Positions 20,801-36,824 of a DNA stretch of 64,000 nucleotides are shown in pieces. The notes beneath the pieces are model-generated. The model worked only from the letters and a program-made list of their open reading frames with translations. It was not told the DNA's origin and made no database searches. This DNA comes from Promethearchaeota archaeon (GTDB lineage: Archaea > Asgardarchaeota > Lokiarchaeia > Sigyniarchaeales > SOKP01). Numbering within the stretch: the stretch's first letter is position 1; each line of letters opens with the position of its first letter. Location of the stretch: NCBI GenBank assembly GCA_048938025.1, contig JBHLMP010000002.1, forward strand, positions 1-64,000, in the 5' to 3' direction. The position numbers and the translations under genes were made by a program.

Positions 20801-21117
20801 CCAAGTTCATTAAGTTCCACGCCAACATTTAAAGCTGTTTGGCCTCCAAATGCTAATAAAATCCCGTCTGGTTTTTCTTTTTTTATTACTTCCTCCACAT
20901 ATTTAACGTTTATTGGTAATAAGTAAACTTTATCTGATAGTTCTGGATCAGTTTGAATAGTTGCAATATTTGGGTTAATTAAAATAGTTTCTATTCCCTC
21001 TTCTTTGAGGGCTTTTAACACTTGACTTCCTGAATAATCAAATTCTCCAGCTTGGCCAATACGGATTCCTCCAGAACCTAAAACCAATGCTTTTCTAATT
21101 TTTTTATCTAATGGCAT
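17806..21117 (-). CDS. carB: Carbamoyl-phosphate synthase large subunit
   Basis: GSGGIRIGQAGEFDYSG, duplicated ATP-grasp domains, NPETVSTDYD, C-terminal MGS domain. Confidence 0.98.
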   Translation of the reverse strand: MPLDKKIRKALVLGSGGIRIGQAGEFDYSGSQVLKALKEEGIETILINPNIATIQTDPELSDKVYLLPINVKYVEEVIKKEKPDGILLAFGGQTALNVGVELNELGILKKYNVRVLGTPIKAIEATEDRDLFVKAMEKSNVKVCKSQAVSSYAGALKAVKEIGFPCMIRVAYTLGGRGSGIVNNMKEFERMAKKGLAQSRINQILIEESIWGWKEIEYEVVRDSQDNCFINCNMENFDPVGLHTGESLVVSPSQTLTNQEYQMLRSASIRVIRNLGIIGECNIQYGLDPFSKEFRAIEVNARLSRSSALASKATGYPLAYIAAKLAIGYTLPELKNKITGITTACFEPALDYLVLKIPRWDLTKFQKVDRRIGSQMKSVGEVMAIGRTFEEVLQKAIRMLDIGMKGFVANDLEPIDDINELKYALRNPTDLRVFRFAEAIKRGVSLDEIYRLSRVDKWFLHKLKNIIVLERHLQDLDLLESNDNEKKYWLERAKRYGFSDGQIAKIMEVDTIFIRQLRRRLGIQPYVKRIDTLAAEWPAITNYLYLTYSASEHDIDFTVENNSNLSKIIVLGSGTYRIGASVEFDWGSVNCLWGLKKLDIDQAIMINYNPETVSTDYDISDKLYFEEISGERVLDICELEKATGIVVSAGGQIANNLATKISKYSEFFRKTNLKILGTHGSRIDMAEDRSKFSALLDQLNIKQPQWNALINKEEALRFAKEVGYPVLVRPSYVLSGAAMRVSYDEKTLQDTLDLAAAVSSEYPVVITKFFTNAREIECDGISDGDNVLIGAIVEHIENAGIHSGDATMAIPPQTVPKSVINIIENYTTQIALALKIQGPFNVQYLVKNGNVYVIECNLRSSRSMPYVSKTRGINLMRLAAETIMGNKIPKRLLNIPYGTFVSIKAPMFSFMRLDKADPVLGVEMASTGEVACIGQDFPDALIKSLEATEMDIPIEGGNVLISVGGEALKKEVIPLAKKLKSLGFSIFATEDTALTLKTSGIEAVRLYKVHEYGKEPNIMACLQEGRIDMVINIPLPTTVEEKFKKIMEDEYLIRRMAVDYNIPVIINLQLAKAIVEAIENVRQKKVEIKSLNEYHDTLKEIYW

Positions 21118-21121
21118 AAAT

Positions 21122-22255
21122 TCATAACTTTATAAATTCTAAAAATTCATCAAATAAATATATGGAATCTAATGGACCTGGAGATGCTTCAGGGTGAAAT
21201 TGAACTGCTAAAATAGGTTTACTTTCATGTTTCAAACCCTCATTCGAGTCATCATCAATATTTCTTAAAAATTCCTTAAAACCACCCTTTTCAAATTCTT
21301 TAACACAAAATCCATGATTTTGTGAAGTAATATAGCATTTATGAGTTTCTGGATTTATAACTGTTTTATTTCCACCTCTATGCCCATATTTCAATTTGTA
21401 GGATACTCCTCCGGCAGCTAAACCAATTATTTGATTACCTAAGCAAATTCCCATTGTTGGAATATCATTTTTAATTAATTTATGGGCAACTTTTATTGCT
21501 CCCTTATACATGGCAGGATCTCCTGGACCGTTAGAAATAAGAACACCATTGGGAAAAAATTCCATAATTTTTTCGTATGTATAATTATATGGAACAAGAA
21601 TGACTTCTAAATTTCTTTTCACTAAATTTCTTAAAATATTATTTTTAACACCCAAATCTAATACAACTATTTTGCCAATAGGATTAGTTGGAATAAACTT
21701 TTTAACTTCTTTTGTGGATACTTCACTTGCTAAGTGTCTAAGGTTAGGATCTTCAACCTTTTTAACCTCTTCACGTAATTCCTTAATATTAGGTTTCTCA
21801 CCTGAATTGAAAACAGAAATTAATCCTAATTGAACGCCTTCTTCCCTTAATATTTTTGTAATAGCCCTTGTATCCATCCATTCAATTCCTGGGACATCTT
21901 CTTCAAGAAGGAATTTCTCTAAAGATTTTACACTTTCATAATGGCTCGGGTCCTTACAACACTCATTTACTACAAGACCGCTTACTTTAATTGAATCTGA
22001 CTCAAAATATTTACTAATACCATATCTATCTTTTTCGTTCGTAGGAACTCCATAATTACCCACCAACGGGTGTGTCATTACTACTATCTGACCTTTATAT
22101 GATGGATCGGTTAAAGTCTCATTATAACCAGCACCAGTTATAGTGGTAAAAACAAGCTCACCTGACACTATTTTTGTGGCACCAAACCCTATCCCTTGAA
22201 AGTAACGACCATCTTGAAGCATTAAAATAGCAGGTCTTTCCTTCTTATAAAGCAT
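21122..22255 (-). CDS. carA: Carbamoyl-phosphate synthase small subunit
   Basis: TDPSYKGQ, SNGPGDP, GICLG, SQNHGF, QFHPEASPGP. Confidence 0.98.
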   Translation of the reverse strand: MLYKKERPAILMLQDGRYFQGIGFGATKIVSGELVFTTITGAGYNETLTDPSYKGQIVVMTHPLVGNYGVPTNEKDRYGISKYFESDSIKVSGLVVNECCKDPSHYESVKSLEKFLLEEDVPGIEWMDTRAITKILREEGVQLGLISVFNSGEKPNIKELREEVKKVEDPNLRHLASEVSTKEVKKFIPTNPIGKIVVLDLGVKNNILRNLVKRNLEVILVPYNYTYEKIMEFFPNGVLISNGPGDPAMYKGAIKVAHKLIKNDIPTMGICLGNQIIGLAAGGVSYKLKYGHRGGNKTVINPETHKCYITSQNHGFCVKEFEKGGFKEFLRNIDDDSNEGLKHESKPILAVQFHPEASPGPLDSIYLFDEFLEFIKL

Positions 22256-22386
22256 CTAAATTAATCTATGATTTTTCTTTTTCAATCTTAAAATAAAGAT
22301 AACTATTATTTTTTATTAAGATTGATTATTAATGTGTTAAACAAAAAATGGTAGGAGTAATTTCTATAAATAAGAAATTTAAGAGA

Positions 22387-23424
22387 TTATTGTTTACTAA
22401 TTGAAAGATAATATTCTTTATAAGTGGTTTTAATAGCTTCAAAAATTGATTCTAAACTTATATTATCAAAATTAGACCACCACGAATAAATTTTGGTGTA
22501 AGATTTTTCTAAATCTTTAGATTTTTGTATAGATATTACATTTTGATCAATTAAAAAAGAGGGATTCAATATATCCTCAGCACCTTCTTCTAAATCTGCT
22601 AAGTTTTGAAGCATGCATTCAAGTAAATCATCATAAAATAGAATGGGGATATATTTTTTTTCTGTAGGTCTCAATTCATTTAATAGAATACTCTGTTCGT
22701 TTTTATTTGTGGGAAAATCCCTCTCATGAAGGTTAAAAATTTCTATGTCTATAAGTTCAGGAAAATATTGAGTCTGTTTTACTTTTTTCCTCTTCTGATG
22801 GATCATTACTTCTTTTACTTTGAAAAGTAAAACATTTCTTTGCCTTCCTCTTATATCAACAAGAATTGAATTTTCATTAATTCTTTTATTACAAATATCT
22901 GTAATTATTTGGCAATACTCGGTAGCAGCTTTAACAAGATCCTCTTCATCTAACTTTGCTTTTACCATTGTATGCAAATAAGCTCTTAAAAAAGCTGAAA
23001 AATCTTCCTCTAAATGAGATAAATTTCCATAAAGATACCTAGTGGAATTCCACCATTTACTTGCCCGTTCAATCGAAAGAGAAGTATAAAATTTTTCTCG
23101 GGCTCTAACCTCAGTGAAATATAATAGTTTTTCTATTCCAAGCTTTATGAATGGGTTTGGGTTGATTGCTGCTACAAGATCTTCGCCGATCATAAAAGAT
23201 ATCGGTTCCCTTGGACGAATTAGAATTGAATTTTCAGCATTATAGACACGATCAACTCTCATTGGTAAAGGCATTATTGGATTGGATTTAATGGATTTTA
23301 TTAATTCGACATAGTGAGGTTGTTTTAAGCCTGAAGTATCTGCTTGGAACACATCAATGAAAAAGAAAAACGGTGCAGCGTCATATTTGTAAGTTTTAAA
23401 TTTATGTATACTTATGAGGTTCAC
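22387..23424 (-). CDS. Hypothetical protein
   Basis: 345-aa ORF with typical composition; no recognised domain. Confidence 0.75.
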   Translation of the reverse strand: MNLISIHKFKTYKYDAAPFFFFIDVFQADTSGLKQPHYVELIKSIKSNPIMPLPMRVDRVYNAENSILIRPREPISFMIGEDLVAAINPNPFIKLGIEKLLYFTEVRAREKFYTSLSIERASKWWNSTRYLYGNLSHLEEDFSAFLRAYLHTMVKAKLDEEDLVKAATEYCQIITDICNKRINENSILVDIRGRQRNVLLFKVKEVMIHQKRKKVKQTQYFPELIDIEIFNLHERDFPTNKNEQSILLNELRPTEKKYIPILFYDDLLECMLQNLADLEEGAEDILNPSFLIDQNVISIQKSKDLEKSYTKIYSWWSNFDNISLESIFEAIKTTYKEYYLSISKQ

Positions 23425-23482
23425 CTGAACATAATCAATAAAAAAATAATACTATTTAGAAAATTAAGAAAAAAAAATAAAT

Positions 23483-24649
23483 TTATTTCATATCTACAAA
23501 TTTTCCACTTTTAAATAAATCACAAGGTTTTAGGTATTCACTCCCAATCTCTTCAGAAATATTTTCCAATTTCTTAAGAAATTTGTTATAATTTTTTATC
23601 CCTTCGCCAAAAGGACCGGGAGTATTCATACCAGCCATATTGGCATCATCAATAACTTGCCAACCACTCGCAATACCCTCTTCTAAGATTCTGCATCCTT
23701 CATTGAGACGAATAGCAAGACCCACATCAGGATCAACCAATCCTGCTTTTTGAATTTTAGAAAAATCTGGTTGTGGTCTTCCTTTTAACCAGTCATAAAA
23801 TCCCTGTCCTGTTTTTCTACCTAATTTTCCTTCCTTGAACATTTTAGTTATTACTTTTCCTGGTCTGAAATCCTCGTGCAATGTTTCAGCATAATAGTTT
23901 CGTCCATGATATGCGGTATCAATACCAGTATAATCCATTAACACAAGTGGAGACATTGGTCCTCCGCTCCCATAATCCGCGTCTAAAGACTCAAATGGAA
24001 TTCCTCTTTCAAAACAAGTATCAAGAAGATAATTTAAATATATTGAATTTGGAGCATTGAGTCTGTTTACAATAAAACCTGGTCTATCTTTTAATACTTT
24101 TGCTATATATCGATCTCCTCTAAGGCATGGTAAACTTTCGCCTACTTTTATTCCAATTTCCATGGATTCTTCAGAAGATTTCTTACCTGCTATAACTTCA
24201 ATTAATCTCATTAAAGGAGCTGGATTAAAAAAATGCATACCAATACATTTATCTTCTCTATTAGTTGCAGTAGCCATTTCGGTTATTGACATAGTTGAAG
24301 TATTTGAAGCAATAATACAGTGAGAAGGAGCATTATTATCACAAATTTTGAAAATCTCTTTCTTAACATCCATTTTTTCAACTACGGCTTCAATAATATA
24401 GTCTGCATTTTTTACTGCAGAAGCTAAGTCTAATGTGGTGTTTAATCGTGCCATATTTTCTACTACTGATAACTTTCCTTTAGCTTCAAGTCTTTTTAAC
24501 CCATCCTCAATGTTAATAATACCTTTATCAATAAATTCTTGCTTTATATCAACTACTGTAACGTTATAGCCTGCCATTAGAGAAACCTGAGCTATACCGG
24601 AACCCATTAACCCAACACCAATAACAATAATATTCTTAACATCACTCAT
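23483..24649 (-). CDS. 3-hydroxyacyl-CoA dehydrogenase with duplicated C-terminal domain
   Basis: GVGLMGSGIA, IEAVVE, SNTST, GMHFFNPAP, GKLGRKTGQGFY. Confidence 0.92.
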   Translation of the reverse strand: MSDVKNIIVIGVGLMGSGIAQVSLMAGYNVTVVDIKQEFIDKGIINIEDGLKRLEAKGKLSVVENMARLNTTLDLASAVKNADYIIEAVVEKMDVKKEIFKICDNNAPSHCIIASNTSTMSITEMATATNREDKCIGMHFFNPAPLMRLIEVIAGKKSSEESMEIGIKVGESLPCLRGDRYIAKVLKDRPGFIVNRLNAPNSIYLNYLLDTCFERGIPFESLDADYGSGGPMSPLVLMDYTGIDTAYHGRNYYAETLHEDFRPGKVITKMFKEGKLGRKTGQGFYDWLKGRPQPDFSKIQKAGLVDPDVGLAIRLNEGCRILEEGIASGWQVIDDANMAGMNTPGPFGEGIKNYNKFLKKLENISEEIGSEYLKPCDLFKSGKFVDMK

Positions 24650-24717
24650 CTTAATCTAAACCAACCTTTCAAAAATTTTTACCCAAATAAATGCTTGTTT
24701 CTAATAAAATCTATTGA

Positions 24718-25611
24718 TTATGGGTTGCTTCTAATAAATTCAACTATAATCTCAGCTAGCTCAGGACCTTTATCTTCTTGTACAAAATGACCGGCACCTT
24801 TAATGGTGGTGTGATTTTGCCCTTGACAACCCGGAACAATTTTCTGCCAAAATCTTTCTCCACCTCTGGTGATTGGATCACTATCAGAAAATGCTGTTAA
24901 AAATGGTTTCTTCCATTTACGAAATTTTCCTGTAGCATTTTTATTAGCATCATGTTCTGGGTCATCTTTACCAATCGGGACTAGCGAGGGCATAATTCGA
25001 GCGCCAGCTTTGAAAGAGTCATCTGGAAATGGTGCATCATATCCTCTTAATATATCATCTGATAATTGAGTGGTTGTACCATCTTGAATGATTGTTTTTA
25101 TATCAAAAACAGGAGAATTTCTCGAAAATTCACGGAATTTTAAAAAAACATTAGACATTCTCTGCTCTCCAGTGGGAAGTCCTCCATTGGATAAAACTAT
25201 TCGCCTAAAACGATCTTGATTTTCTATAGCTACCCGTAAACCTATTAAAGATCCCCAATCTTGGCAAAATAAAGTAATATTATGAAGATTAAGTGTTTTC
25301 ATCCATTTTGTAATCCATTCTACATGCTTACTATAAGTATAGTCACTTTGTTCTGTTGGTTTATCCGATCGTCCAAATCCTACTAAATCTGGTGCCAATA
25401 TCTGATAACCAGCATCTACAAGAATTGGAATCATATGCCTATATAAAAAACACCATGAAGGTTCACCATGCATTAGTAAAACACATTCTGTACTATTCAA
25501 TCCCTCATCTAAATAATGAATCCTAATACCATCAACAACTATATAATTAGGTTTATATGGAAAATTAGGAAGATTTTCAAATTTTTCTTCTGACGTACGT
25601 AATAATTTCAT
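24718..25611 (-). CDS. Haloalkane dehalogenase (DhlA-like, HLD-I)
   Basis: HGEPSW, PDLVGFGRSDKP, QDWG nucleophile, AGHFVQED; the ATG follows AGGTGA. Confidence 0.88.
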   Translation of the reverse strand: MKLLRTSEEKFENLPNFPYKPNYIVVDGIRIHYLDEGLNSTECVLLMHGEPSWCFLYRHMIPILVDAGYQILAPDLVGFGRSDKPTEQSDYTYSKHVEWITKWMKTLNLHNITLFCQDWGSLIGLRVAIENQDRFRRIVLSNGGLPTGEQRMSNVFLKFREFSRNSPVFDIKTIIQDGTTTQLSDDILRGYDAPFPDDSFKAGARIMPSLVPIGKDDPEHDANKNATGKFRKWKKPFLTAFSDSDPITRGGERFWQKIVPGCQGQNHTTIKGAGHFVQEDKGPELAEIIVEFIRSNP

Positions 25612-25629
25612 ATTTTTCACCTTATTTTT

Positions 25630-26196
25630 TTAAAACTTTGTGCTTTTTTTTGACTTAAAAATTATTGCTGGTTTGGTCCTCTCAGAATAAGTGAAATTAT
25701 CTGCTTCTCTAATTTCACCATATTTTGCTTTGAGTTCTTCGAGATTACCCACATAGAGAGCCCGAGGTCGACAAGTTTGAACGCAAACTGGTATTTTATT
25801 TTCTAAGTACCTATCTAAACAAAAGGTGCACTTTCTCATCTTTGCTCCTTTTTCTGGTCCGAATTGGGGTGCATTATAGGGACATGCCTTTAAGCATTTA
25901 GAATCACATTCTTCATTGCCAACGCATTTATCACTATCAACAATAACTATTCCATCTTCTTCTCTTTTTGTTATAGCATTGACAGGACAAACAGGGATGC
26001 AGACGGGATCTTCGCAATGATAACAAGGCCTTACTAAATAACTTACGAAAACATTTGGAGTTTTTCCTTTTTCATTATAAAGTACCTTCATCCAAAATTC
26101 TGGTCCTGCTGGAATATCATTCCAATCTTTGCAAGCGACTATACATGCATTACATCCTGTACATCGAGTTTGATCAAAATAGAAACCAATCTGCAT
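25630..26196 (-). CDS. DmsB-like 4x[4Fe-4S] electron-transfer subunit
   Basis: FDQTRCTGCNACIVACKD, CYHCEDPVC..VCP, KCTFC..R...PVCVQTC. Confidence 0.92.
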   Translation of the reverse strand: MQIGFYFDQTRCTGCNACIVACKDWNDIPAGPEFWMKVLYNEKGKTPNVFVSYLVRPCYHCEDPVCIPVCPVNAITKREEDGIVIVDSDKCVGNEECDSKCLKACPYNAPQFGPEKGAKMRKCTFCLDRYLENKIPVCVQTCRPRALYVGNLEELKAKYGEIREADNFTYSERTKPAIIFKSKKSTKF

Positions 26197-26197
26197 T

Positions 26198-28447
26198 TTA
26201 TATCACCTCCGGTTTATCTTTGCTTACTTGCACAAGACATGTTTTCAAACAACAAGCCCCGTCAGGAGCATAAGCATTTTTTGTCAAAGTATTAGCGCAG
26301 CCGCCTCTATCAATGCCTTCCTCATCAGGAGTATACCATGCCCCTTCATGGATGACTATAACTCCGGGAATAATTCGCTCCGTAACCCATGCTTCAATTG
26401 ATAAAGTCCCTCTATCGTTATAAACATATATTAAATCTCCTGTCTTAATATCTCTAGGTTCAGCATCAATGGAATTAATCCAACACCTATGAGGATCAAC
26501 CTCTTTAAGCCATTCGACAAGATATAATTCGGAATGAACTCTATTCTTAGGGTGCGGAGAAAGCATTTGCAATGGGTATTTTTCGATCAAGGGATCAAAT
26601 CTATCTTCCCAAGTACTTAAATATTTAGGAATGGGGGGTAAATTGGGATCATTTATATCAGCTACTCGTTGCGAAAAGATTTCAATTTTTCCTGAAGGCG
26701 TCTTGAAAGGATTGTTTTCAGGGTCTTCTATTTGTTTTTTAAACGCCACATAAGGTTCGTCTAATTTTACTCTCCAAATTCCATCTTCTTTATATTTATC
26801 ATAATCAGTGACATGCTCTTTAATATCTTTTGTACCTCTCCAAAACCTTTTTAATTGCCTTTCCTCATCGTAATGTTTAAAATCTTCAATACCTAATCTT
26901 TCTGCAAGTTCTTCAGCAATGGTGATATCGTGCTTGCACTCCCCTATGGGTTCAATAGCTTTATTCATATATCCAAAATATGGTCCAGATGGCCAAGGTC
27001 GGGTCAAATCAGATCTTTCTGCCATGCTAGTTGTTGGTAATACGATATCTGCAAATTTAGCTGTGGGGGTCATGAATAATTCAACACTAACCATATAATC
27101 GAGCTTTTTTAATGCTTCTGCATTGTGATTAGTATTACCTAACTGATTTAAAAAATTATTGCCGCAAAACCATCCAAATTTGATGTCGTATGGATATCCA
27201 CCTTCCTTACCTACTAAAATCTGATCAAATATCTTATTAGTATGAACCCTTGTGCGTAAACGATGATTTAAATTCACTGATCCTCGTACTGAAATTCTAT
27301 CAGGATGGTTTTCTTCAACCGGATTCCTACTTGGAGGTAAAATAAATGGTCCAAAAAACATGTGGGCTATTGGAATACCCATTAGTCCACCACAAGCAGC
27401 GCCACCTTTTCGTCCAACATTTCCAGTCATGGCAGATAATGTCATAGCACCTCTAATATATTGTCCACCCATTGCACTGCGTGCTGGTCCTTGACAGTCC
27501 ATCAACGCTGCTGGTTTAGTGTTGGCATATTCACGAGCTAATTCTCTGATCGTTTCTGCTGGTACGTTGCAGATCTTTTCAGCCCATTCTGGTGTTTTTT
27601 CAACCCCATCTTCTTCTCCCATCACATATTCTTTAAATTTATCAAATCCAATCGTATACTTATCCAAAAAAGATTTGTCATGAAGGTTTTCTGTTATCAT
27701 TACATTAGCCATAGCAACCATCATTGCCACATCAGTACCTGGTAAAATAGGTATCCATTTGTCAGCTACTACAATATCCGTATCGGAATATTTAGGATTA
27801 ATACTTATAACTTTAGCACCTTTTTCATGTGCTTTTATAAGATAATATAATGCATCTGTTCCTGAATTCATTCTCGCAGGATTCCAACCCCATAATATTA
27901 TTAATTTTGAATTTAACATATCTTCTCGGCTATGACCTACAAATGGAGACGCATATTGAGTCATTGTCGCCCAAACAGCACCCTCAGAGGATACATTTCC
28001 ATGGTGTGTGGAGAAACCACCAAAATGGGTAAATAATCTAATCATTGCGAGAATAGGATGATGATATGCGCCGATATAACCACCACCCATAGGAAGAAAT
28101 ATTGCCTCATTACCGTATTTTTCTTTTGTATATTTGAGTTTTTCAGCTATCTCATCTAATGCTTCATCCCATGAAATGCGTTTAAACTTACCCTCTCCTT
28201 TTAGTCCGACTCTCTTCAGTGGATACTTAAGCCTCTCTGGATGGTAAATCTCTTTTCGAATAGCGCGACATTTTACACAGGTTCTAAGTTGGTTTTCTTC
28301 ATCAACTAAGTCGTCCCCCTCAACACGGATAATTTTACCATTCTTCACATGAAATTTAATAGGACAACGTCCCCCACAATCGAATGCTGATGTAGTCCTT
28401 ACAACCTTAACCTCGTCAACTTTCTGTTGTTCGTTTTGATTTTCCAT
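26198..28447 (-). CDS. DMSO reductase family molybdopterin oxidoreductase catalytic subunit (DmsA-like, no Tat signal)
   Basis: DCGGRC Fe-S motif, ISWDEALD, WGWNP, PGTD, TPTAKFADIVLP, C-terminal MGD-binding domain. Confidence 0.92.
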   Translation of the reverse strand: MENQNEQQKVDEVKVVRTTSAFDCGGRCPIKFHVKNGKIIRVEGDDLVDEENQLRTCVKCRAIRKEIYHPERLKYPLKRVGLKGEGKFKRISWDEALDEIAEKLKYTKEKYGNEAIFLPMGGGYIGAYHHPILAMIRLFTHFGGFSTHHGNVSSEGAVWATMTQYASPFVGHSREDMLNSKLIILWGWNPARMNSGTDALYYLIKAHEKGAKVISINPKYSDTDIVVADKWIPILPGTDVAMMVAMANVMITENLHDKSFLDKYTIGFDKFKEYVMGEEDGVEKTPEWAEKICNVPAETIRELAREYANTKPAALMDCQGPARSAMGGQYIRGAMTLSAMTGNVGRKGGAACGGLMGIPIAHMFFGPFILPPSRNPVEENHPDRISVRGSVNLNHRLRTRVHTNKIFDQILVGKEGGYPYDIKFGWFCGNNFLNQLGNTNHNAEALKKLDYMVSVELFMTPTAKFADIVLPTTSMAERSDLTRPWPSGPYFGYMNKAIEPIGECKHDITIAEELAERLGIEDFKHYDEERQLKRFWRGTKDIKEHVTDYDKYKEDGIWRVKLDEPYVAFKKQIEDPENNPFKTPSGKIEIFSQRVADINDPNLPPIPKYLSTWEDRFDPLIEKYPLQMLSPHPKNRVHSELYLVEWLKEVDPHRCWINSIDAEPRDIKTGDLIYVYNDRGTLSIEAWVTERIIPGVIVIHEGAWYTPDEEGIDRGGCANTLTKNAYAPDGACCLKTCLVQVSKDKPEVI
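27523..27685 (-). repeat. 163-bp perfect inverted repeat, left copy
   Basis: Reverse complement identical to 29381-29543. Confidence 0.95.
28125..28177 (-). repeat. 53-bp perfect inverted repeat, left copy
   Basis: Reverse complement identical to 28892-28944. Confidence 0.95.
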
Positions 28448-28627
28448 AAAATCATCTTTTATATAATTGTAATATTTTTAGATGTATTAGTTATTAAATT
28501 TTTATAATTAAATGTAAGTTTGCATAAAGAAGTGAGAAGAGAATCATTAAATATATGATTTTTTCATAAAAAGTATTTAAACACTGTATATTTTTTCTAG
28601 TTAAAATTTATCTTAAAATAAAAAAGA

Positions 28628-30916
28628 TTGAGTGAATTTAAAATAGAAATAAAAGACATTGATTTTAAAGTAATTAAAACTGGTTGTTGTCACGATTGTG
28701 GCGGACGTTGTGTTCTTAGAGCACATGTTAAAGATGGTAAAATCATAAGAATTGAAACTGATAATGGAGAAGAACCTCAATTGAGAGCGTGTGTGCGTGG
28801 AAGAGCCTACAGACAAAGGATTTACTCCGCAGAGAGACTAAGATATCCTCTGCGTCGTATTGGCGAACGAGGTGAAGGTATATTTGAACGTATTTCATGG
28901 GATGAAGCATTAGATGAGATAGCTGAAAAACTCAAATATACAAAGGATAAATACGGTAATTCCGCTATATTATTGGTTCCGGGTGGAGGAAACCAAGGGA
29001 TGGTACATGGAATCGTACCAGTTGCTTTAATGCTTCATCAAATCGGAGGATATACTAGAATGTGGGGGGCTCCTTCATATGAGGGGGCACTTTTTGCATC
29101 AATGGCGACTTATGGGACAATGATGACTGGTAATGCACGTGAAGATTTATTAAATTCAAAACTAATTATCATGTGGGGCTGGAATCCTGCTAACACAATC
29201 TGGGATCCTGGGACAAGCCTAATATTAGCTAAAGCTAAAGAGAAAGGAATTAAAATAATAACTATTGATCCTATTTTTACAGATTCAGCAGCAATATTCG
29301 CTAATCAATGGATACCAATTCGACCAGGTACCGATACAGCAATGCTACTTTCAATTGCCTATGTAATTATTAAAGAAAATCTTCATGACAAATCTTTTTT
29401 GGATAAGTATACGATTGGATTTGATAAATTTAAAGAATATGTGATGGGAGAAGAAGATGGGGTTGAAAAAACACCAGAATGGGCTGAAAAGATCTGCAAC
29501 GTACCAGCAGAAACGATCAGAGAATTAGCTCGTGAATATGCCACTTCTAAACCAGCTGCTCTTATAGCAGGTTGGGGGCCAGCCAGAACAGCTTTTGGAG
29601 AACAATATTCTCGTGCTGCTAATGTACTTTGTGCCATTACAGGGAACATTGGGATTAAAGGTGGCTATGCTTCTGGCTTTATGAGAGCATATTATAGTCG
29701 TGAGAGAATAGTACCTGGAGGGAAAAAAACGAAAGATACTTCTACTAAGGAAGAAAAGCCAAAAAAACAAAGATTACAAGATAATCCGGTTGATTTTGGT
29801 GCTTCACCACGTAAAGATGCTTTATATAAATTAAAAGGCGGGACAAATCCTGCCAATACTAGAATTCATTATAATGATTATTACGAAGCAATTTTACAAG
29901 GAAAAAAAGGAGGTTACCCTGCTGATATTAAAATGGCTTATATTGCAGGAACAAATCGTTTAAACCAGTTTAGTAATGTAAATAAAGGTGTTAAGGCTTT
30001 AAAATCTCTTGAATATATAGTTATTCATGAACAATTTATGACACCTACAGCTAAATTTGCTGACATTATTTTACCAATAAATACATTTATGGAACGAAAT
30101 GATGTTGCTGTCCCTTGGCTTGGTTCTCCTTATTACATATATTTGAATAAAGCTATTGATTCCATGTATGAGTCAAAATCGGATTTAGAAATATGCCGGG
30201 AGCTTTTGAAAAGGATGGGTATTAAATCAAGTCTTTTAGATTTGGATGAGGATCAACTATTAAGGTTATTTGTAGCTCCGCGAAAGGACATTAAAAGTTA
30301 TAACAAAATGAAAAGAGATGGCTATTATAAAGTTAAAGTTGAGGAACCATTTGTAGCATTTAAAGATCAAATAGACGATCCTGAGAACAATCCCTTTCCT
30401 ACGTTATCGGGCAAAATTGAAATATATTGTGAACATATAGCAGAAAAAGATATTCCCTTAATGCCACCAATTCCAAAATATTTTAGTCATGATGAACACT
30501 ATGATTCTCCCAAAGTTAAAACGTATCCTCTACAACTTATTACACCTCATAATAAAAGGCGAACACATTCAACCTTAAATATGGTTCCATGGTTGGAAGA
30601 AATAGAAAAACACGCAGTTTGGATTAATCCAGTTGATGCCGAACCAAGAAAAATTAAAGAGGGAGATTTAGTAGACATTTACAATGATAGAGGTAGAATT
30701 CGAATTCCTGCTAAGGTTACAGAAAGGGTGATACCTGGAGTTATAGTAGTATTTCAAGGGAGTTGGTATAATCCTAATAAGGAGGGAGTGGATCTTGGGG
30801 GGTGTGCTAATGTGTTAACAAATGATGTTCACTCTCCGGGAGGGGCTTTTCCAATGAATAGTGCTTTAGTTCAAGTTGAATTATATTCAAAAAATCAAGG
30901 GGAGGGTACAATATGA
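28628..30916 (+). CDS. DMSO reductase family molybdopterin oxidoreductase catalytic subunit (DmsA-like, no Tat signal)
   Basis: CCHDCGGRC..C Fe-S motif, ISWDEALD, WGWNP, IRPGTD, TPTAKFADIILP. Confidence 0.92.
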   Translation: MSEFKIEIKDIDFKVIKTGCCHDCGGRCVLRAHVKDGKIIRIETDNGEEPQLRACVRGRAYRQRIYSAERLRYPLRRIGERGEGIFERISWDEALDEIAEKLKYTKDKYGNSAILLVPGGGNQGMVHGIVPVALMLHQIGGYTRMWGAPSYEGALFASMATYGTMMTGNAREDLLNSKLIIMWGWNPANTIWDPGTSLILAKAKEKGIKIITIDPIFTDSAAIFANQWIPIRPGTDTAMLLSIAYVIIKENLHDKSFLDKYTIGFDKFKEYVMGEEDGVEKTPEWAEKICNVPAETIRELAREYATSKPAALIAGWGPARTAFGEQYSRAANVLCAITGNIGIKGGYASGFMRAYYSRERIVPGGKKTKDTSTKEEKPKKQRLQDNPVDFGASPRKDALYKLKGGTNPANTRIHYNDYYEAILQGKKGGYPADIKMAYIAGTNRLNQFSNVNKGVKALKSLEYIVIHEQFMTPTAKFADIILPINTFMERNDVAVPWLGSPYYIYLNKAIDSMYESKSDLEICRELLKRMGIKSSLLDLDEDQLLRLFVAPRKDIKSYNKMKRDGYYKVKVEEPFVAFKDQIDDPENNPFPTLSGKIEIYCEHIAEKDIPLMPPIPKYFSHDEHYDSPKVKTYPLQLITPHNKRRTHSTLNMVPWLEEIEKHAVWINPVDAEPRKIKEGDLVDIYNDRGRIRIPAKVTERVIPGVIVVFQGSWYNPNKEGVDLGGCANVLTNDVHSPGGAFPMNSALVQVELYSKNQGEGTI
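28892..28944 (+). repeat. 53-bp perfect inverted repeat, right copy
   Basis: Encodes ISWDEALDEIAEKLKYT(K) in both paralogs with identical codons. Confidence 0.95.
29381..29543 (+). repeat. 163-bp perfect inverted repeat, right copy
   Basis: Encodes LHDKSF...RELAREYA in both paralogs with identical codons. Confidence 0.95.
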
Positions 30917-31482
30917 CTCAAATGGGTTTTTATTTTGATCAAACTCGCTGTACTGGGTGCTTCGCGTGTGCTGTTGCCTGTAAAGATTGGCATAATATCC
31001 CAGCGGGGCCAATAAACTGGCTACGAGTTAAAGAAATTGAAAAAGGAAAATATCCTAATTTATTTTTAACTTACCTTGTTATAGCATGTAATCATTGTGC
31101 TGATCCTCCATGTATAAAGGCATGTCCAGTTAATGCAATAATCAAAAGAGAGTCTGATGGAGTAGTAATAGTAAACCAAGAAGTATGCATAGGTAAGAAC
31201 GAATGTGGATTTAAATGCCTAAAAGTATGTCCTTGGGATGCCCCTCAATTTGGGTTCGAGGAAAATTCTAAAATGCAAAAGTGTGATTTATGTATAGAAC
31301 GTTTAGAACAAGGTCAACAAACAATTTGTGTTGAAGCTTGTCCAATGTATGCTTTGGATGTCGGACCTATAAATGAGCTTCGTGAAAAATATGGTAATAA
31401 TATTGATGCAGAAGGTTTTAACTATTCAGAAAAATATAAACCTTCAATAGTGTTTAAACCAAAATTTTTTAATAAAAAATAG
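30913..31482 (+). CDS. DmsB-like 4x[4Fe-4S] electron-transfer subunit
   Basis: CTGCFACAVACKD, CNHCADPPCIKACP, KCDLC; ATGA overlap with the upstream gene. Confidence 0.92.
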   Translation: MTQMGFYFDQTRCTGCFACAVACKDWHNIPAGPINWLRVKEIEKGKYPNLFLTYLVIACNHCADPPCIKACPVNAIIKRESDGVVIVNQEVCIGKNECGFKCLKVCPWDAPQFGFEENSKMQKCDLCIERLEQGQQTICVEACPMYALDVGPINELREKYGNNIDAEGFNYSEKYKPSIVFKPKFFNKK

Positions 31483-31571
31483 ATTAAGTTTTTCTCTAAT
31501 ACTATTTTATTTAACAAATTAATGGATTTAAAAAATTTAATTTAAATCAAAATGAAAAGTGATTATAAAAA

Positions 31572-32399
31572 ATGTCTGAAGAAAAAAAGTATGAACATAT
31601 TAAAATAGAAAAAGTTCCAGATAACAACTATGCTGTAATCATAATAAATCGACCTGATAAATTGAATGCTCTTCAAAATCAAACATTAAGAGAAATTGCC
31701 GAAGCTTTACAATCTATGGATGCAGATCAAAACGTACGATGTGTAGTATTACGAGGGACAAAAGAATTTACTAAAAAAAGAGCTTTTTCCGCAGGAGCAG
31801 ATCTCTCTGATAGAGGGAGTGGTGATCTTGATCCTGATAACTTAAGGCATCAAAGTCATGCTATGTACAGAAGACAAAAATACTATGATTTAATTGAAGA
31901 ATTCCCAAAACCTTTAATTGCAGCTATAGATGGTTATGCTCTGGGTGGTGGATTTGAATTAGTTTTGGTTTGTGATATCTCTATCGCTTCTAGGCGATCA
32001 GCATTTGGATTTCCTGAAATTCAACGAGGCATTTTTCCTGCTAATGGTGGTACTCAAAGATTAATAAGAAATCTTGGTAAACAGAGGGTGAAAAGAATGA
32101 TGTTTTTTGGTGAACATTATACTGCTGAGCAGATGTTTGAGTGGGGAGTTATTTCTTTTGTGGTTGATGATGATAAATTTGAGGATTTTGTTCATGAAAG
32201 AGCATCATGGTTAGGGAATGCCGCTACAAATAGCCTATTTATAATTAAAAAATCCATTGACTACGGAACTCAAGTACCATTAAGAATAGGCTTACAATTT
32301 GAACAAATGGGTTATGCGATTAATTCTAGAAGCAAAGATGTGACTGAAGGGGTCACTGCCTTCCTAGAAAAAAGAAAACCTAAATTTCAAGGTAAATAA
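31572..32399 (+). CDS. Enoyl-CoA hydratase/isomerase (crotonase family)
   Basis: NRPDKLNA, FSAGAD, GYALGGGFEL, FPE..GIFP, FLEKRKP. Confidence 0.93.
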   Translation: MSEEKKYEHIKIEKVPDNNYAVIIINRPDKLNALQNQTLREIAEALQSMDADQNVRCVVLRGTKEFTKKRAFSAGADLSDRGSGDLDPDNLRHQSHAMYRRQKYYDLIEEFPKPLIAAIDGYALGGGFELVLVCDISIASRRSAFGFPEIQRGIFPANGGTQRLIRNLGKQRVKRMMFFGEHYTAEQMFEWGVISFVVDDDKFEDFVHERASWLGNAATNSLFIIKKSIDYGTQVPLRIGLQFEQMGYAINSRSKDVTEGVTAFLEKRKPKFQGK

Positions 32400-32500
32400 G
32401 GAGAATTTTGATATACATTTCTATTTTTTTTTTTAATTTTTGCTTACTTGATAAATTTTATAATAAATGAAGTTTTTTAGAATAAAAAACATCATAAAAA

Positions 32501-33796
32501 TTGAGTGAAAATAGATTGAATTTAAAAGAAGTCTGGTTAATTGATTACACTAGAACACCTTTTTCACGTTCCAGACCAGAACAACCTGAAAGGGATGTTT
32601 TTGGAGAAATTCGTGGAGATGAATTACTTGCTGAATTATTAATAAAGTTTTTTGATGGAAAATTAGCTGATAAAGGCATAGTGAGAAAAGATATTGAGGA
32701 AGCATCAATAGGGATTGCTTCTGGTGTATTAGAAAATTGGACTTACGGTGGAAAAATTCCTCTTTTTTTAGCAGGGTTCCCACCCGAAGTCTCTTCATTT
32801 ATGATAGATAAACAATGTGCTTCAGCAGGCGTAGGAATGCATACATTGATCATGCATATTATGACAGGAAATAGCAAAAGAGTATTAGCAACTGGTATGG
32901 AACATATGACAAGAGTCCGTAGAGTCGGAATTGCACCTGAGTGGGAGCGATTTTCTGACGAGAAAAGCAAATATTACTACCCTGATATTGATATAATGAA
33001 TTCGATTAATATGTTACAAACAGCTCAAAGATTATATGAAGAAGAAGTGCCACGATTTACAAAAGAAGATTTAGATAAGTTTGGCGTAAGATCTCATAAT
33101 TTAACCGTTAAAAATACAGAAGAAGGCTGGTTTAAGGGGGAAATTATTCCAATAAAAGGCCATGTTGAAGGCAATGTTGAGGAACCAATGATGGTGGATA
33201 GAGACATGGCCGCTAGAAAATCTACCTTAGAAGGAGTCGCAGGACTACGTAGAATAACTACACCATTCTATTTAGAAAAAAATGGTGGCAAACAGGGATA
33301 TATTGAGAGAGAAGGAACGGAAGAAGGTGTAATAACAGCGGGAAATTCATCTCCGTTAAATGCTGGAGCTACAGCAGCAGTTCTTATGGAGGCTGAAGAG
33401 GCAAGAAAAAGAGGATTAGAACCAATGGCACGGATTGTTTCAATTGGGTGGGCAGCAGTGGATCCAAGAGTTATGGGAAGAGGACCAGTTCCGGCTACTC
33501 GTAAAGCACTAGAATCTGCTGGTTTACAAGCAGATGATATTGATTACTGGGAAATAAATGAAGCTTTTTGTATAGTTGCTTTGAATTGTATGGACAAATT
33601 CAATATTCCGGAAGAAAAAGTCAATATTATGGGAGGTTCTACTGCGATAGGACATCCTTTAGGATCAACGGTGATTCGTCTTACAGGGACTCTTGCTAGA
33701 ATTTTAAAAGACAGAAAAGCCAGATTCGGAGTAGCTAACGCCTGCGTTGGTGGAGGTCAGGGATTAGCGACTGTAATTGAGAATCTAGATGCTTAA
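32501..33796 (+). CDS. Acetyl-CoA C-acyltransferase (thiolase)
   Basis: KQCASAG catalytic Cys, TAGNSS, EINEAF, GHPLG, CVGGGQG. Confidence 0.95.
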   Translation: MSENRLNLKEVWLIDYTRTPFSRSRPEQPERDVFGEIRGDELLAELLIKFFDGKLADKGIVRKDIEEASIGIASGVLENWTYGGKIPLFLAGFPPEVSSFMIDKQCASAGVGMHTLIMHIMTGNSKRVLATGMEHMTRVRRVGIAPEWERFSDEKSKYYYPDIDIMNSINMLQTAQRLYEEEVPRFTKEDLDKFGVRSHNLTVKNTEEGWFKGEIIPIKGHVEGNVEEPMMVDRDMAARKSTLEGVAGLRRITTPFYLEKNGGKQGYIEREGTEEGVITAGNSSPLNAGATAAVLMEAEEARKRGLEPMARIVSIGWAAVDPRVMGRGPVPATRKALESAGLQADDIDYWEINEAFCIVALNCMDKFNIPEEKVNIMGGSTAIGHPLGSTVIRLTGTLARILKDRKARFGVANACVGGGQGLATVIENLDA

Positions 33797-33866
33797 GAAC
33801 ATTCATAACATAAATCTCTCATTTTTTATTTATTAATTTAGTAAAAACTACAAAGATCTGAATATT

Positions 33867-34751
33867 TTGGTCTATATAAATAAAGAAGGAAAGTTTAATG
33901 CCAATACTTGGTTGATTGATGGATATTTATTTGGACAGAAGGGAAATCTTTCACTTTATATTATTGAAAATGATGGCATAAGATTGATGATTGATGCTTC
34001 TGAAAAAGCAGCAGTACCTAAAATTATTGAAAAATTGAAGAAATTCGAGATTTATCCAATTCATAAAATTTTTCTTACTCATTCCCATTTTGATCACGTA
34101 GATGGGGTCCATGAATTACAGAAATCAATGAAGGATACAAAGATTGAAGTTTTAGCCTCGGAAAATGCAATAGAGAATTTAAAAAATCCAAATAATATGA
34201 ATGAAGTATTTGCAGCCAAAATGGAACCAATAGAAGATGTTATACCTTTAAAAGATAATGAAATTATTAATCTAAATGGCTTAGAATTAGAAGTCCTGAA
34301 TTTTTTCGGACATTCAATGGATTCTATAGCACTTTTTGATAAAAAAAATATGAATATATTCACTGGTGATGCAATTATCGATAAATCTAGTATTTATTAT
34401 TTCCAACCTACCTTTATGCCACCAGATTTCCATGAAACGGAATTATTAAAGACATTTCAGAGACTTAGGAGTATGAAAAATAAATTGAATTCAATATCAC
34501 TAGCCCATTATGGTGTATGGACAGAGGAAGATTTCGAACAAATAGTAAATAGTATGGAAGAATTACATTTCGCTACAAAAAATTCAATTATTAAGTGGTA
34601 TAAAGAAAATCCTTCATTCAATTACTTAGCTCTCAAGTTTCATGAAACTTTCACACCCAAATCTAAAATTATCAAATATGGAAATATAGGATTTTTAGAA
34701 AGACAAATGGAATTTTTTGTTGATAGTTTAAAGAGAAGCGGATTTATTTAA
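33867..34751 (+). CDS. MBL-fold metallo-hydrolase
   Basis: THSHFDHVDG, GHS, FTGD, AHYG. Confidence 0.88.
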   Translation: MVYINKEGKFNANTWLIDGYLFGQKGNLSLYIIENDGIRLMIDASEKAAVPKIIEKLKKFEIYPIHKIFLTHSHFDHVDGVHELQKSMKDTKIEVLASENAIENLKNPNNMNEVFAAKMEPIEDVIPLKDNEIINLNGLELEVLNFFGHSMDSIALFDKKNMNIFTGDAIIDKSSIYYFQPTFMPPDFHETELLKTFQRLRSMKNKLNSISLAHYGVWTEEDFEQIVNSMEELHFATKNSIIKWYKENPSFNYLALKFHETFTPKSKIIKYGNIGFLERQMEFFVDSLKRSGFI

Positions 34752-34813
34752 CATAAAAAATTGATATTCAATATGAAAAATAAATGTATTATTTTGTTAA
34801 AGGTGATAAAATA

Positions 34814-35653
34814 TTGTCTGGATTAAATCTTGATGTTATAGGTAAAAAATTTCCTGAGGTTACTTTTAAATATAATTGGAAAGATGTAGTACTTTATGCT
34901 TTAGGGATTGGGGCTCAGGTTGATGAGTTACAATTTTTATATGAAGGATTCTCTGGAGGATTAAAAGTTTTCCCTAGTTACGCCTGTATAGTCGGAGGGG
35001 CAGGTCTTCAGCTTAATAGGCTTGGTAAAATCGCTTTTTCGCACTTTGTTCATGGGGAACAGTCAATTAAGCTATACAAATCCTTTTCTTCATCAGATGA
35101 AATAATTTGTCAAGGTGAGGTTGAGAATATCTTTGATAAAGGAAAAGCTGCTGTTATTCATATGAACGTTTCAGGACATAAGAAAGGAGGTGAACCTATA
35201 TTTGAAACGAAATGGGTATTTTTTTACCTTAAAGGAGGAGGATTTGGAGGTGATCCAGGTCCTAAAACTAAACCGTTAAATCCTCCAGAAGGGGTAGAAC
35301 CAGATTTTAGGATATCTTATAAAACTAATGAAAATCAAGCAGCTTTGTATAGGCTTAATGGAGATTTAAACCCCTTACATATAGATCCTGAATTTGCCAG
35401 TAGAAGTGGAAGATTTAAAGGACCAATACTCCATGGACTATGTACATATGGTTTTGCAACTCGTGCTATAATTTATGGTGCCTGTAATGGAGACATTGAA
35501 CGTTTTAAAGAGTTCAAAGCACGATTTGCAAGTGAAGTTTATCCCGGAGAACCTTTAACTACAGAGGGTTGGAAAGATAATGGACGGTATATAATTCAAG
35601 TCCGAACAGAAAGAGCTGTTGTTCTTGGAAATGCATATGCTATTGTAGAATGA
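34814..35653 (+). CDS. MaoC-type double hot-dog (R)-specific enoyl-CoA hydratase 2 (start TTG 34814 after AGGTGA)
   Basis: LYALGIGA, VHGEQ, YRLNGDLNPLHIDP hydratase-2 motif, ILHGLCTYG. Confidence 0.9.
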   Translation: MSGLNLDVIGKKFPEVTFKYNWKDVVLYALGIGAQVDELQFLYEGFSGGLKVFPSYACIVGGAGLQLNRLGKIAFSHFVHGEQSIKLYKSFSSSDEIICQGEVENIFDKGKAAVIHMNVSGHKKGGEPIFETKWVFFYLKGGGFGGDPGPKTKPLNPPEGVEPDFRISYKTNENQAALYRLNGDLNPLHIDPEFASRSGRFKGPILHGLCTYGFATRAIIYGACNGDIERFKEFKARFASEVYPGEPLTTEGWKDNGRYIIQVRTERAVVLGNAYAIVE

Positions 35654-35678
35654 AATAATAAGAATAAAAATATTTATT

Positions 35679-36824
35679 TTAATTTTTTCGAGGAGGGAGC
35701 ATTCTAACCATTCTAAAACCTTCAACCATGGATATAGCATTTTCTGGGCAAAAGTAAGCACAAACTCCACAACCAATACAAAATTCCTTGATTCTTTCAG
35801 CTTTATTCTCATCATTCAAAAATATTGCATTATTATAACATTTTTCGATACACGTTCCACATCCTATACATAAGTCTGGATCAATCTGTGCTAAATAAAA
35901 TGTTGCATTAACTACGGCATTATTTTGCACATTTCTGCTATTTGGACAACAACATGAGCAACAATTGCATATTGCTACTTCTTCCTTTGAAATATCTGAA
36001 TGGAGATGATAAGCCTTATGAACTAATCCATCTTGTTCAGACTGTTTTAGGATTTCTAATGCTTCTTCTTTGGTTACCATTCTAGCAAATCCTTGAGTTG
36101 ATGTATGTCTAGCACTTTTTCCTATTGTAAAGCAATTTTCTCTTAGATCTGTAGCTTTACACGGATCTCCAAGCATATCTTTATGTTGACGGCAAAAACA
36201 ATGTCCAACAGCAATATCATCAAATTTTTCAATAATATCTTTTACTGTTTGAGCTGGTAAAATCATTTCAGTAGGAACTTCTAATTCTTTATCAACAAGT
36301 ATATCAATTTCATCGCCGTCTTTATTAATTAAATGAGGGACTGTTCTATCTACTGGTAACCTCTTTTCTATCGTAGAAGCGACAAAATCATAATTATTTT
36401 GAACGAAAGTCTCAATTTCCTCATCAAATTTAGAATAAAGAGTTGCTAATTTTCTAAACTCTTGTGTATTTTCAAGTTTTTTCATAAAAGTATACTCAAA
36501 CTGCCTTGCTACTGGTAATAACCGAAATATCATTAAACCTGTGCGATTGGGTTGATTAAAAATCACACCTTTCTTCGCCAGAGCATCAACTTTTTGCAAA
36601 ATATCTTCTTCACGTAGACCACAACTAGCTTTTAACTGTTCTATTGTTTGAGATAGGTTTTTTTCAAAAGCCATAATAAAGTCTAAGTTTTCCTCTTTTA
36701 TGTTATGCTTTAATATTTCAATTAATGTATCAGTCACAGGATAAGGAAACTGTCCAGCTTTATTAATTATGTCTGCTGCTTTCCTATATTTCATATCTAT
36801 ATTCTTATCTTTTATTTTCGACAT
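35679..36824 (-). CDS. Fe-S protein with C-terminal 2x[4Fe-4S] ferredoxin domain
   Basis: CFCRQ..C..C, GLVH, ICNCCSCCC, CIGCGTC..C, CIGCGVC..CP. Confidence 0.85.
   Translation of the reverse strand: MSKIKDKNIDMKYRKAADIINKAGQFPYPVTDTLIEILKHNIKEENLDFIMAFEKNLSQTIEQLKASCGLREEDILQKVDALAKKGVIFNQPNRTGLMIFRLLPVARQFEYTFMKKLENTQEFRKLATLYSKFDEEIETFVQNNYDFVASTIEKRLPVDRTVPHLINKDGDEIDILVDKELEVPTEMILPAQTVKDIIEKFDDIAVGHCFCRQHKDMLGDPCKATDLRENCFTIGKSARHTSTQGFARMVTKEEALEILKQSEQDGLVHKAYHLHSDISKEEVAICNCCSCCCPNSRNVQNNAVVNATFYLAQIDPDLCIGCGTCIEKCYNNAIFLNDENKAERIKEFCIGCGVCAYFCPENAISMVEGFRMVRMLPPRKN

Follow-up and report, generated by a model that had tools for sequence, protein, structure and literature searches.

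How can two paralogous genes that have diverged almost to saturation at synonymous sites share segments that are identical to the last nucleotide, and do such segments, facing each other as inverted repeats, act as a switch or record an act of copying? The question is raised by a molybdoenzyme locus in a metagenome-assembled genome (MAG) of a Promethearchaeota archaeon of the class Lokiarchaeia, which comprises 88 contigs and 3.52 Mb and is 96.7% complete with 5.1% contamination. We refer to this source genome as G000; other G-numbers denote the genomes of relatives, and the suffixes _A and _B give the gene type. The window, by which we mean the whole stretch of DNA that was analysed, is the initial 64 kb of contig C38 of this MAG and has a G+C content of 31%. 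Within it, gene A (26198-28447, minus strand, 749 amino acids) and gene B (28628-30916, plus strand, 762 amino acids, with a TTG start) encode paralogous DmsA-like molybdopterin oxidoreductase alpha subunits, and they diverge from an AT-rich intergenic region that places 180 bp between their start codons (28448-28627). Both proteins contain the Molybdop_Fe4S4, Molybdopterin and Molydop_binding domains (PF04879, PF00384 and PF01568).

A preliminary description of this DNA, made from the sequence alone, had pointed out that the two genes are clearly diverged and that two tracts within them are completely identical. Both observations hold. Over 733 aligned codons the genes agree at 54.7% of amino acids and 63.3% of nucleotides, synonymous differences occur even in the conserved LNSKLII.WGWNPA region, and synonymous divergence (dS) outside the tracts is about 1.75, close to saturation. 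The longer tract, of 163 bp, occupies 27523-27685 on the minus strand in A, where it covers residues 255-308/309 (LHDKSF...LAREYA), and 29381-29543 on the plus strand in B. The shorter one, of 53 bp, lies at 28125-28177 on the minus strand in A, where it encodes ISWDEALDEIAEKLKYTK, and at 28892-28944 on the plus strand in B. The preliminary description took these nested inverted repeats to be a possible means of shuffling enzyme modules by inversion. From comparison with related genomes, we consider it highly probable that the tracts are instead the product of non-reciprocal gene conversion, with A as the donor and B as the recipient of both, in which case an apparent DNA switch would be explained as an ordinary event.

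Two identical tracts in a diverged gene pair

The copies of each tract are exact reverse complements of one another (163/163 and 53/53 positions) at the coordinates first proposed, and neither pair can be extended by even one base. All four copies start at codon position 1 (A nucleotide 271 and B nucleotide 265 for the 53-bp tract, A nucleotide 763 and B nucleotide 754 for the 163-bp tract), so that both tracts are read in the same frame in the two genes, as had been claimed. The centres of the two pairs, previously put at about 28534, were measured at 28533.0 and 28534.5, and they coincide because two collinear paralogs lie head to head. The edges of the longer tract are sharp, with 18 differences between A and B in the 60 nucleotides upstream, none in the 163 inside and 25 in the 60 downstream.

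The two tract pairs are the only exact inverted repeats of at least 22 nucleotides in the 64-kb window, which contains no exact direct repeat of at least 22 nucleotides, and the longest exact inverted repeat found in each of 20 shuffles of the window measured 16-19 nucleotides. When the codon columns of the two aligned genes were shuffled 2000 times, the longest run of identity had a median of 18 and reached 43 at most, compared with the 163 observed. With the match rate of those tract columns in unconverted relatives as the baseline, a match at every position has a probability of 1e-26 in the longer tract and 2e-8 in the shorter. Chance does not account for the identity of the tracts. A third copy or a mobile element as the source was also considered and rejected, as the 88-contig genome contains no further copy of the tract.

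Other genomes were compared at the corresponding columns. A and B differ there at 46-55 of 163 positions in five unconverted genomes and at 37 of 163 in G043, the closest relative; in the columns of the 53-bp tract, the other genomes compared have 14-23 differences in 53. The segment encoded by the longer tract is well conserved even against a bacterial trimethylamine N-oxide (TMAO) reductase, and nucleotide identity between A and B at this segment is 74-79% in G020 and G015, a locally raised background.

Direction, age and recurrence of the copying

The sequence of the tracts is of the A type. It matches A orthologs at 141 of 163 and 51 of 53 positions in G020_A, at 142 of 163 and 49 of 53 in G015_A, and at 50 of 53 in G022_A, against just 107-122 of 163 and 34-39 of 53 in the B orthologs. 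A sliding-window comparison gives G000_A an identity of 83-96% to G020_A and G015_A over the entire length of the gene. The B gene, which for the most part is 70-88% identical to G020_B and G015_B, drops to 59-67% at the 163-bp tract and to 71-72% at the 53-bp tract, while its identity to G020_A climbs to 86-89% at both tracts; elsewhere it is B-like. In each of the three module trees (N-terminal, middle and C-terminal), A is separated from B with a support of 1.0 and each G000 gene groups with its own orthologs. The only segment that moves G000_B is the 163-bp tract itself, in whose tree G000_B is identical to G000_A and falls within the A clade. Gene A carries no B-type sequence, and gene B carries A-type sequence at the tracts. 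Since a crossover or an inversion would exchange sequence between the genes rather than equalise the two copies, a non-reciprocal transfer of this kind reads as gene conversion. The preliminary description had named gene conversion as one of two processes that might drive its proposed shuffling, and this fallback is borne out.

The copying is young. Outside the tracts, dS between G000 and G043 is 0.26 in A and 0.36 in B. The tracts contain no differences in 216 nucleotides, with about 42 synonymous sites, where 10.9-15.3 synonymous differences would be expected if they were as old as the split between G000 and G043; the conversion is younger than about 0.2-0.3 of the divergence between these genomes (95% bound). 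Within the tract, dS between G000_A and G043_A is 0.31, compared with 0.26 in the remainder of the gene. Orthologs thus vary synonymously within the tract as they do outside it, and selection at the nucleotide level is not what keeps the two copies identical.

A separate observation concerns the genes as a whole. Between G000 and G020, dS is 0.43 for A and 1.73 for B, and nonsynonymous divergence (dN) is 0.033 and 0.117, respectively, so one of the two genes departs from the divergence of the species, perhaps through transfer or recombination at the A/B locus between species of the genus.

Genes of both types are found in many genomes of the genus. In a first draw, 19 of 24 genomes of the same genus matched B at E <= 1e-50, compared with 0 of 16 outside it, and 43 of 54 genomes of the genus, G000 included, matched A at E <= 1e-40. 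Copying of A-type sequence into B recurs among them. In G022, the 3' part of the tract has 2 differences between B and A in 58 positions, compared with 16-25 in unconverted genomes, and the B copy carries variants specific to G022, from which it follows that the copying took place in the G022 lineage. Three contig ends of this MAG share an exact 54-nucleotide word in the tract (one holding A up to residue 301, one A from residue 284 and one B from residue 281), which is typical of an assembly graph that branches at a repeat. In G043, the 5' part of the tract shows 14 differences between A and B in 105 positions, compared with 27-34 in unconverted genomes, which suggests an older conversion that has partly decayed. 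At the protein level, the 120 matches listed include 106 other B-type sequences, of which none has a full A-type segment, the maxima being 43/54 and 15/18. An A-like stretch covers the 5' part of the tract in P0007, P0107 and P0108 and the 3' part in P0010.

The tight head-to-head arrangement is less widespread than the gene pair. In most relatives A and B are divergent and on the same contig but lie 3.6-16.6 kb apart (68 kb in G047) with variable genes between them, and homologs of some of the intervening genes sit on other contigs of G000. Four genomes, G000, G043, G056 and G063, have in common a layout with 143-326 bp between A and B, and the spacers of the latter three are homologous to the G000 intergenic region. 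The G043 locus is collinear with 20548-36419 of the window at 87% identity over 16 kb, and those of G056 and G063 are collinear with the window to the limits of their contigs. The repeats are not kept in G043, where the longest exact inverted match is 28 nucleotides; the fetched G056 and G063 loci contain no exact inverted repeat of at least 24 nucleotides, with the 163-bp region lying beyond the ends of those contigs.

Two further observations were made in the course of these comparisons. The B gene of G059 (locus L053, G059:C198, 3231-5279) matches B residues 1-167 and 278-759 with about 100 nucleotides between them, all in one frame of 692 amino acids; this amounts to an in-frame loss of about 75-110 residues that includes the LNSKLII/WGWNPA region. 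Elsewhere in G000, contig C69 carries an exact direct repeat of 511 nucleotides (19860-20370 and 21427-21937) in two adjacent open reading frames on the same strand (519 and 744 amino acids). Identity falls quickly to background in its flanks, and the repeat possibly represents another island of conversion between adjacent paralogs of G000.

Proposed mechanism and rival explanations

A history consistent with these data would begin with A and B as old paralogs that encode the catalytic subunits of two DmsAB-type molybdoenzymes of cytoplasmic appearance. In the lineage of G000 their operons would have come into a head-to-head position with 180 bp between them. Short stretches of A would then have been copied into B in frame, replacing its own sequence, with an effect on B that was presumably near neutral. 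The likely route would be repair of a break in B by homologous recombination, with invasion of A at a locally conserved segment and resolution without a crossover, and the raised local identity at the 163-bp segment would mark a place where recombination can start. As a by-product, the tracts would become substrates of 163 and 53 bp for occasional inversion by homologous recombination.

Several points weigh against this account, or at least against parts of it. The A-likeness of G056_B is partial and weak, at 19-23 differences in 105. The two tracts of G000 are 439 nucleotides apart in a single lineage, and this would call for either two recent events or one discontinuous, patchy event. All readable cases run from A to B, a bias without a tested explanation. 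The sequence does not discriminate between homologous-recombination repair and template switching during replication. The perfect identity, moreover, rests on a short-read consensus, and smoothing of a near-identical tract is possible. Words of 77 nucleotides at the start of many G000 contigs (C1, C4, C7, C14, C27 and C46) recur elsewhere, from which the largest word length (k) used in the assembly was probably 77. As this is less than 163, read-pair resolution and consensus decide how the middle segment is oriented and whether the tracts agree exactly.

Template switching would bring about the same one-way copying by a different mechanism. The nascent strand would copy the other arm of a giant quasi-palindrome during replication and return, without RadA-type recombination. 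The arms are indeed imperfect inverted copies of each other around a centre near 28534, long perfect tracts are found only in G000, with its 180-bp spacer, and homogenisation of non-identical inverted repeats by template switching has been reported (PMC8604942). We nevertheless regard this variant as unlikely. The same segment is A-like in G022, although A and B are 10.5 kb apart there, and G043, G056 and G063 have equally tight layouts yet no perfect tract of at least 29 nucleotides. Known cases of template switching, furthermore, concern short repeats and not tracts separated by 0.7-1.7 kb.

The idea put forward in the preliminary description was that the nested repeats form a switch, inversion of which shuffles the N-terminal iron-sulfur (Fe-S) and middle modules and leaves chimeric subunits in the population. 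Its geometry stands, in that the repeats are inverted and in frame and a crossover would swap the 5' modules. The count of four DNA configurations and eight subunits also stands, but two of the eight are parental, and the chimeras would number six, not eight. Perfect identity over 163 bp suffices as a substrate for homologous recombination. In the inverted tuf genes, moreover, nearly half of the conversions selected at one site were accompanied by inversion of the intervening segment (PMC5485169).

No sign that such a switch has operated was found, however, and we think it very improbable. No module has been exchanged in G000, where the N-terminal, middle and C-terminal trees described above are congruent and give shuffling no support; congruent trees are among the outcomes that the preliminary description had itself named as leaving simple gene conversion. 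All four tight-layout genomes are collinear and have the same orientation, flanks included. Among the 120 proteins listed out of 5220 matches, a sample in which 90% identity clusters could mask rare variants, no A/B chimera was found: across all four modules 105 show the B type and 13 the A type, and two are B-type proteins truncated at the N-terminus. The repeats are not conserved sites, as the 28-nucleotide maximum in G043 shows, and the MAG contains no contig with an alternative junction. The statement that the window lacks a recombinase is upheld for the only two families searched, tyrosine (PF00589) and serine (PF00239) recombinases; in the whole genome, at its 96.7% completeness, serine recombinases gave no match and tyrosine recombinases one, on contig C33.

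Sequencing runs were examined as k=31 Logan contigs. Four of the 20 runs found were compared with the locus and yielded short pieces from several co-occurring strains, in which the joints listed were only skips and none changed strand, the contigs being too short to span the 53- and 163-bp repeats. In runs X1-X3 there are contigs with alternative intergenic sequences for 28448-28627 that resemble the G056-type and G063-type spacers, which indicates that several related species or strains with the locus co-occur.

Rare or low-frequency inversions by homologous recombination are possible, and there is no indication that inversions are frequent, fixed or used. It seems to us quite improbable that the 163- and 53-bp repeats are used in the living population, flipping 27686-29380, 28178-28891 or both at a measurable frequency. 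If they were, cells would carry up to six in-frame chimeric DmsA-like subunits with exchanged Fe-S and Ser-loop modules, and conversion together with inversion would constitute an engine of module exchange for paralogous redox enzymes in an Asgard archaeon.

An assembly artefact, in which the assembler routed B through A or collapsed segments that are similar but not identical, would gain some plausibility from the 5.1% contamination of the MAG, from a largest k that was probably 77 and hence under the length of the 163-bp repeat, and from the co-occurrence of several related strains in the best-matching samples. We give it a very slight chance. The divergence of unconverted A and B in the tract columns is about 30%, far beyond what bubble collapse can reach, and an independent MAG, G022, shows an A-like B at the same place. 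Both junctions lie within unique B sequence. A 310-nucleotide contig from run X2, moreover, matches 29101-29410 without a difference and ends 30 nucleotides into the B-side tract, which is how a unitig built with k=31 behaves at a true repeat edge. Finally, an element selected at the nucleotide level (for instance a binding site, a small RNA or an inserted mobile element) has nothing in its favour beyond the identity itself and a negligible probability, being contradicted by ordinary in-frame coding sequence that aligns with the bacterial TMAO reductase, by the free synonymous variation of orthologs and by the differences between unconverted A and B (46-55 of 163, and 37 in G043) given above.

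The enzymes, their surroundings and comparable systems

Gene conversion is thus our preferred explanation for the tracts, and it bears on a pair of enzymes whose function can be described in outline. The best NCBIfam family for both A and B is DmsA/YnfE (TIGR02166), with scores of 688.7 bits for A and 683.6 bits for B that remain under the curated cutoff of 777.7. On these scores, A and B would be classed as relatives of the A subunit of DmsA/YnfE-type dimethyl sulfoxide (DMSO)/selenate reductases and not as certified members. The closest solved structure is the TMAO reductase 7l5i (E = 5.7e-93), in which the Ser of a GDYST motif aligns with the Ser of GNVSSEGA; we take the Ser of such a GNVSSEGA-type loop to be the molybdenum ligand. 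A gene for a DmsB-like 4Fe-4S dicluster subunit (PF13247) follows at the 3' side of A and of B alike, at 25630-26196 on the minus strand and 30913-31482 on the plus strand, respectively, scoring 160.9 and 180.6 bits against TIGR02951, below its cutoff of 214.1.

The DmsABC respiratory complex has a twin-arginine signal on its A subunit and a DmsC membrane anchor, and the A/B operons differ from it in both respects. Reading the sequences by eye, we saw no RR motif in the approximately 20 residues ahead of the Fe-S motif, and no DmsC gene stands next to the DmsB-like genes, whose neighbours encode an alpha/beta hydrolase and an enoyl-CoA hydratase. To judge from the sequences, the two systems look like cytoplasmic two-subunit enzymes that resemble S/N-oxide reductases.

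The N-terminal Fe-S motif regions (28360-28447 of the window for A, 28680-28760 for B, and loci L004-L042 of relatives) differ systematically between the two types. In all 15 A orthologs with an N-terminus, the first Cys of the motif is absent (S/T/A-x-F-D-C-G-G-R-C) and an additional Cys stands behind the last one (C-x2-C-R), whereas the canonical C-x2-C-x3-C...C pattern is present in each of the 16 B sequences that include the N-terminus. The A type may therefore ligate its Fe-S cluster differently.

Genes of a beta-oxidation type surround the molybdoenzyme operons. The flanks at 21122-25620 and 31572-35653 encode 3-hydroxyacyl-CoA dehydrogenase, enoyl-CoA hydratase, thiolase and alpha/beta hydrolase, together with a metallo-beta-lactamase-fold protein, and in relatives a paralogous 3-hydroxyacyl-CoA dehydrogenase-like gene sits between A and B. 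A connection of the A/B enzymes to acyl-CoA metabolism is possible.

Read as gene conversion, the locus would document, in nature, repair of the homologous-recombination type among uncultured Asgard archaea: a recent, one-way conversion that has recurred in several species of the genus at one conserved segment of the paired molybdoenzyme genes. Segments of 18 and 54 residues of the A type appear to be tolerated in B-type enzymes. In short-read data such tracts disrupt assembly, as seen in G022, and they can mislead enzyme phylogenies. The locus is also suited to long-read measurement of the rates of inversion and conversion in an organism that is not genetically tractable.

Among the matches listed in literature searches on gene conversion between archaeal paralogs and on inverted repeats, none concerned the A/B locus, and the match found for Lokiarchaeia together with molybdopterin oxidoreductase dealt with another subject. 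Known systems nevertheless offer several points of comparison. Shufflons and Hin/Gin-type invertons rely on a dedicated site-specific recombinase and conserved short sites. The A/B locus is like them in having inverted repeats around a segment whose inversion would change proteins, and differs in that no PF00589 or PF00239 recombinase is nearby, the repeats are absent in relatives, and no second orientation or chimera was seen. Recurrent, patchy gene conversion is a feature of the paralogous chaperonin (thermosome) genes of Archaea, where it appears as discordant phylogenies of gene segments; that case involves another gene family and other lineages, and the A/B conversion has one direction and one hot segment, in a redox enzyme. 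Homogenisation by template switching is known for short repeats with short spacers, while the A/B arms are 53-163 nucleotides long and 0.7-1.7 kb apart. In the cases of PMC8604942 and PMC7202029, imperfect inverted repeats become perfect through the copying of one arm.

A further, well-studied parallel is provided by tufA and tufB of Salmonella enterica (PMC5485169). There, gene conversion takes place between inversely oriented paralogs on one chromosome; it is non-reciprocal, only the recipient being altered, and its tracts range from tens to hundreds of nucleotides. Inversion of the intervening DNA is the other outcome of the same recombination in tuf, and it was not seen for A and B. The same text describes the tuf genes as nearly identical, with 12 differences, and far apart, whereas A and B are 63% identical, 180 bp apart and homogenised in small islands, in the genome of an uncultured Asgard archaeon.

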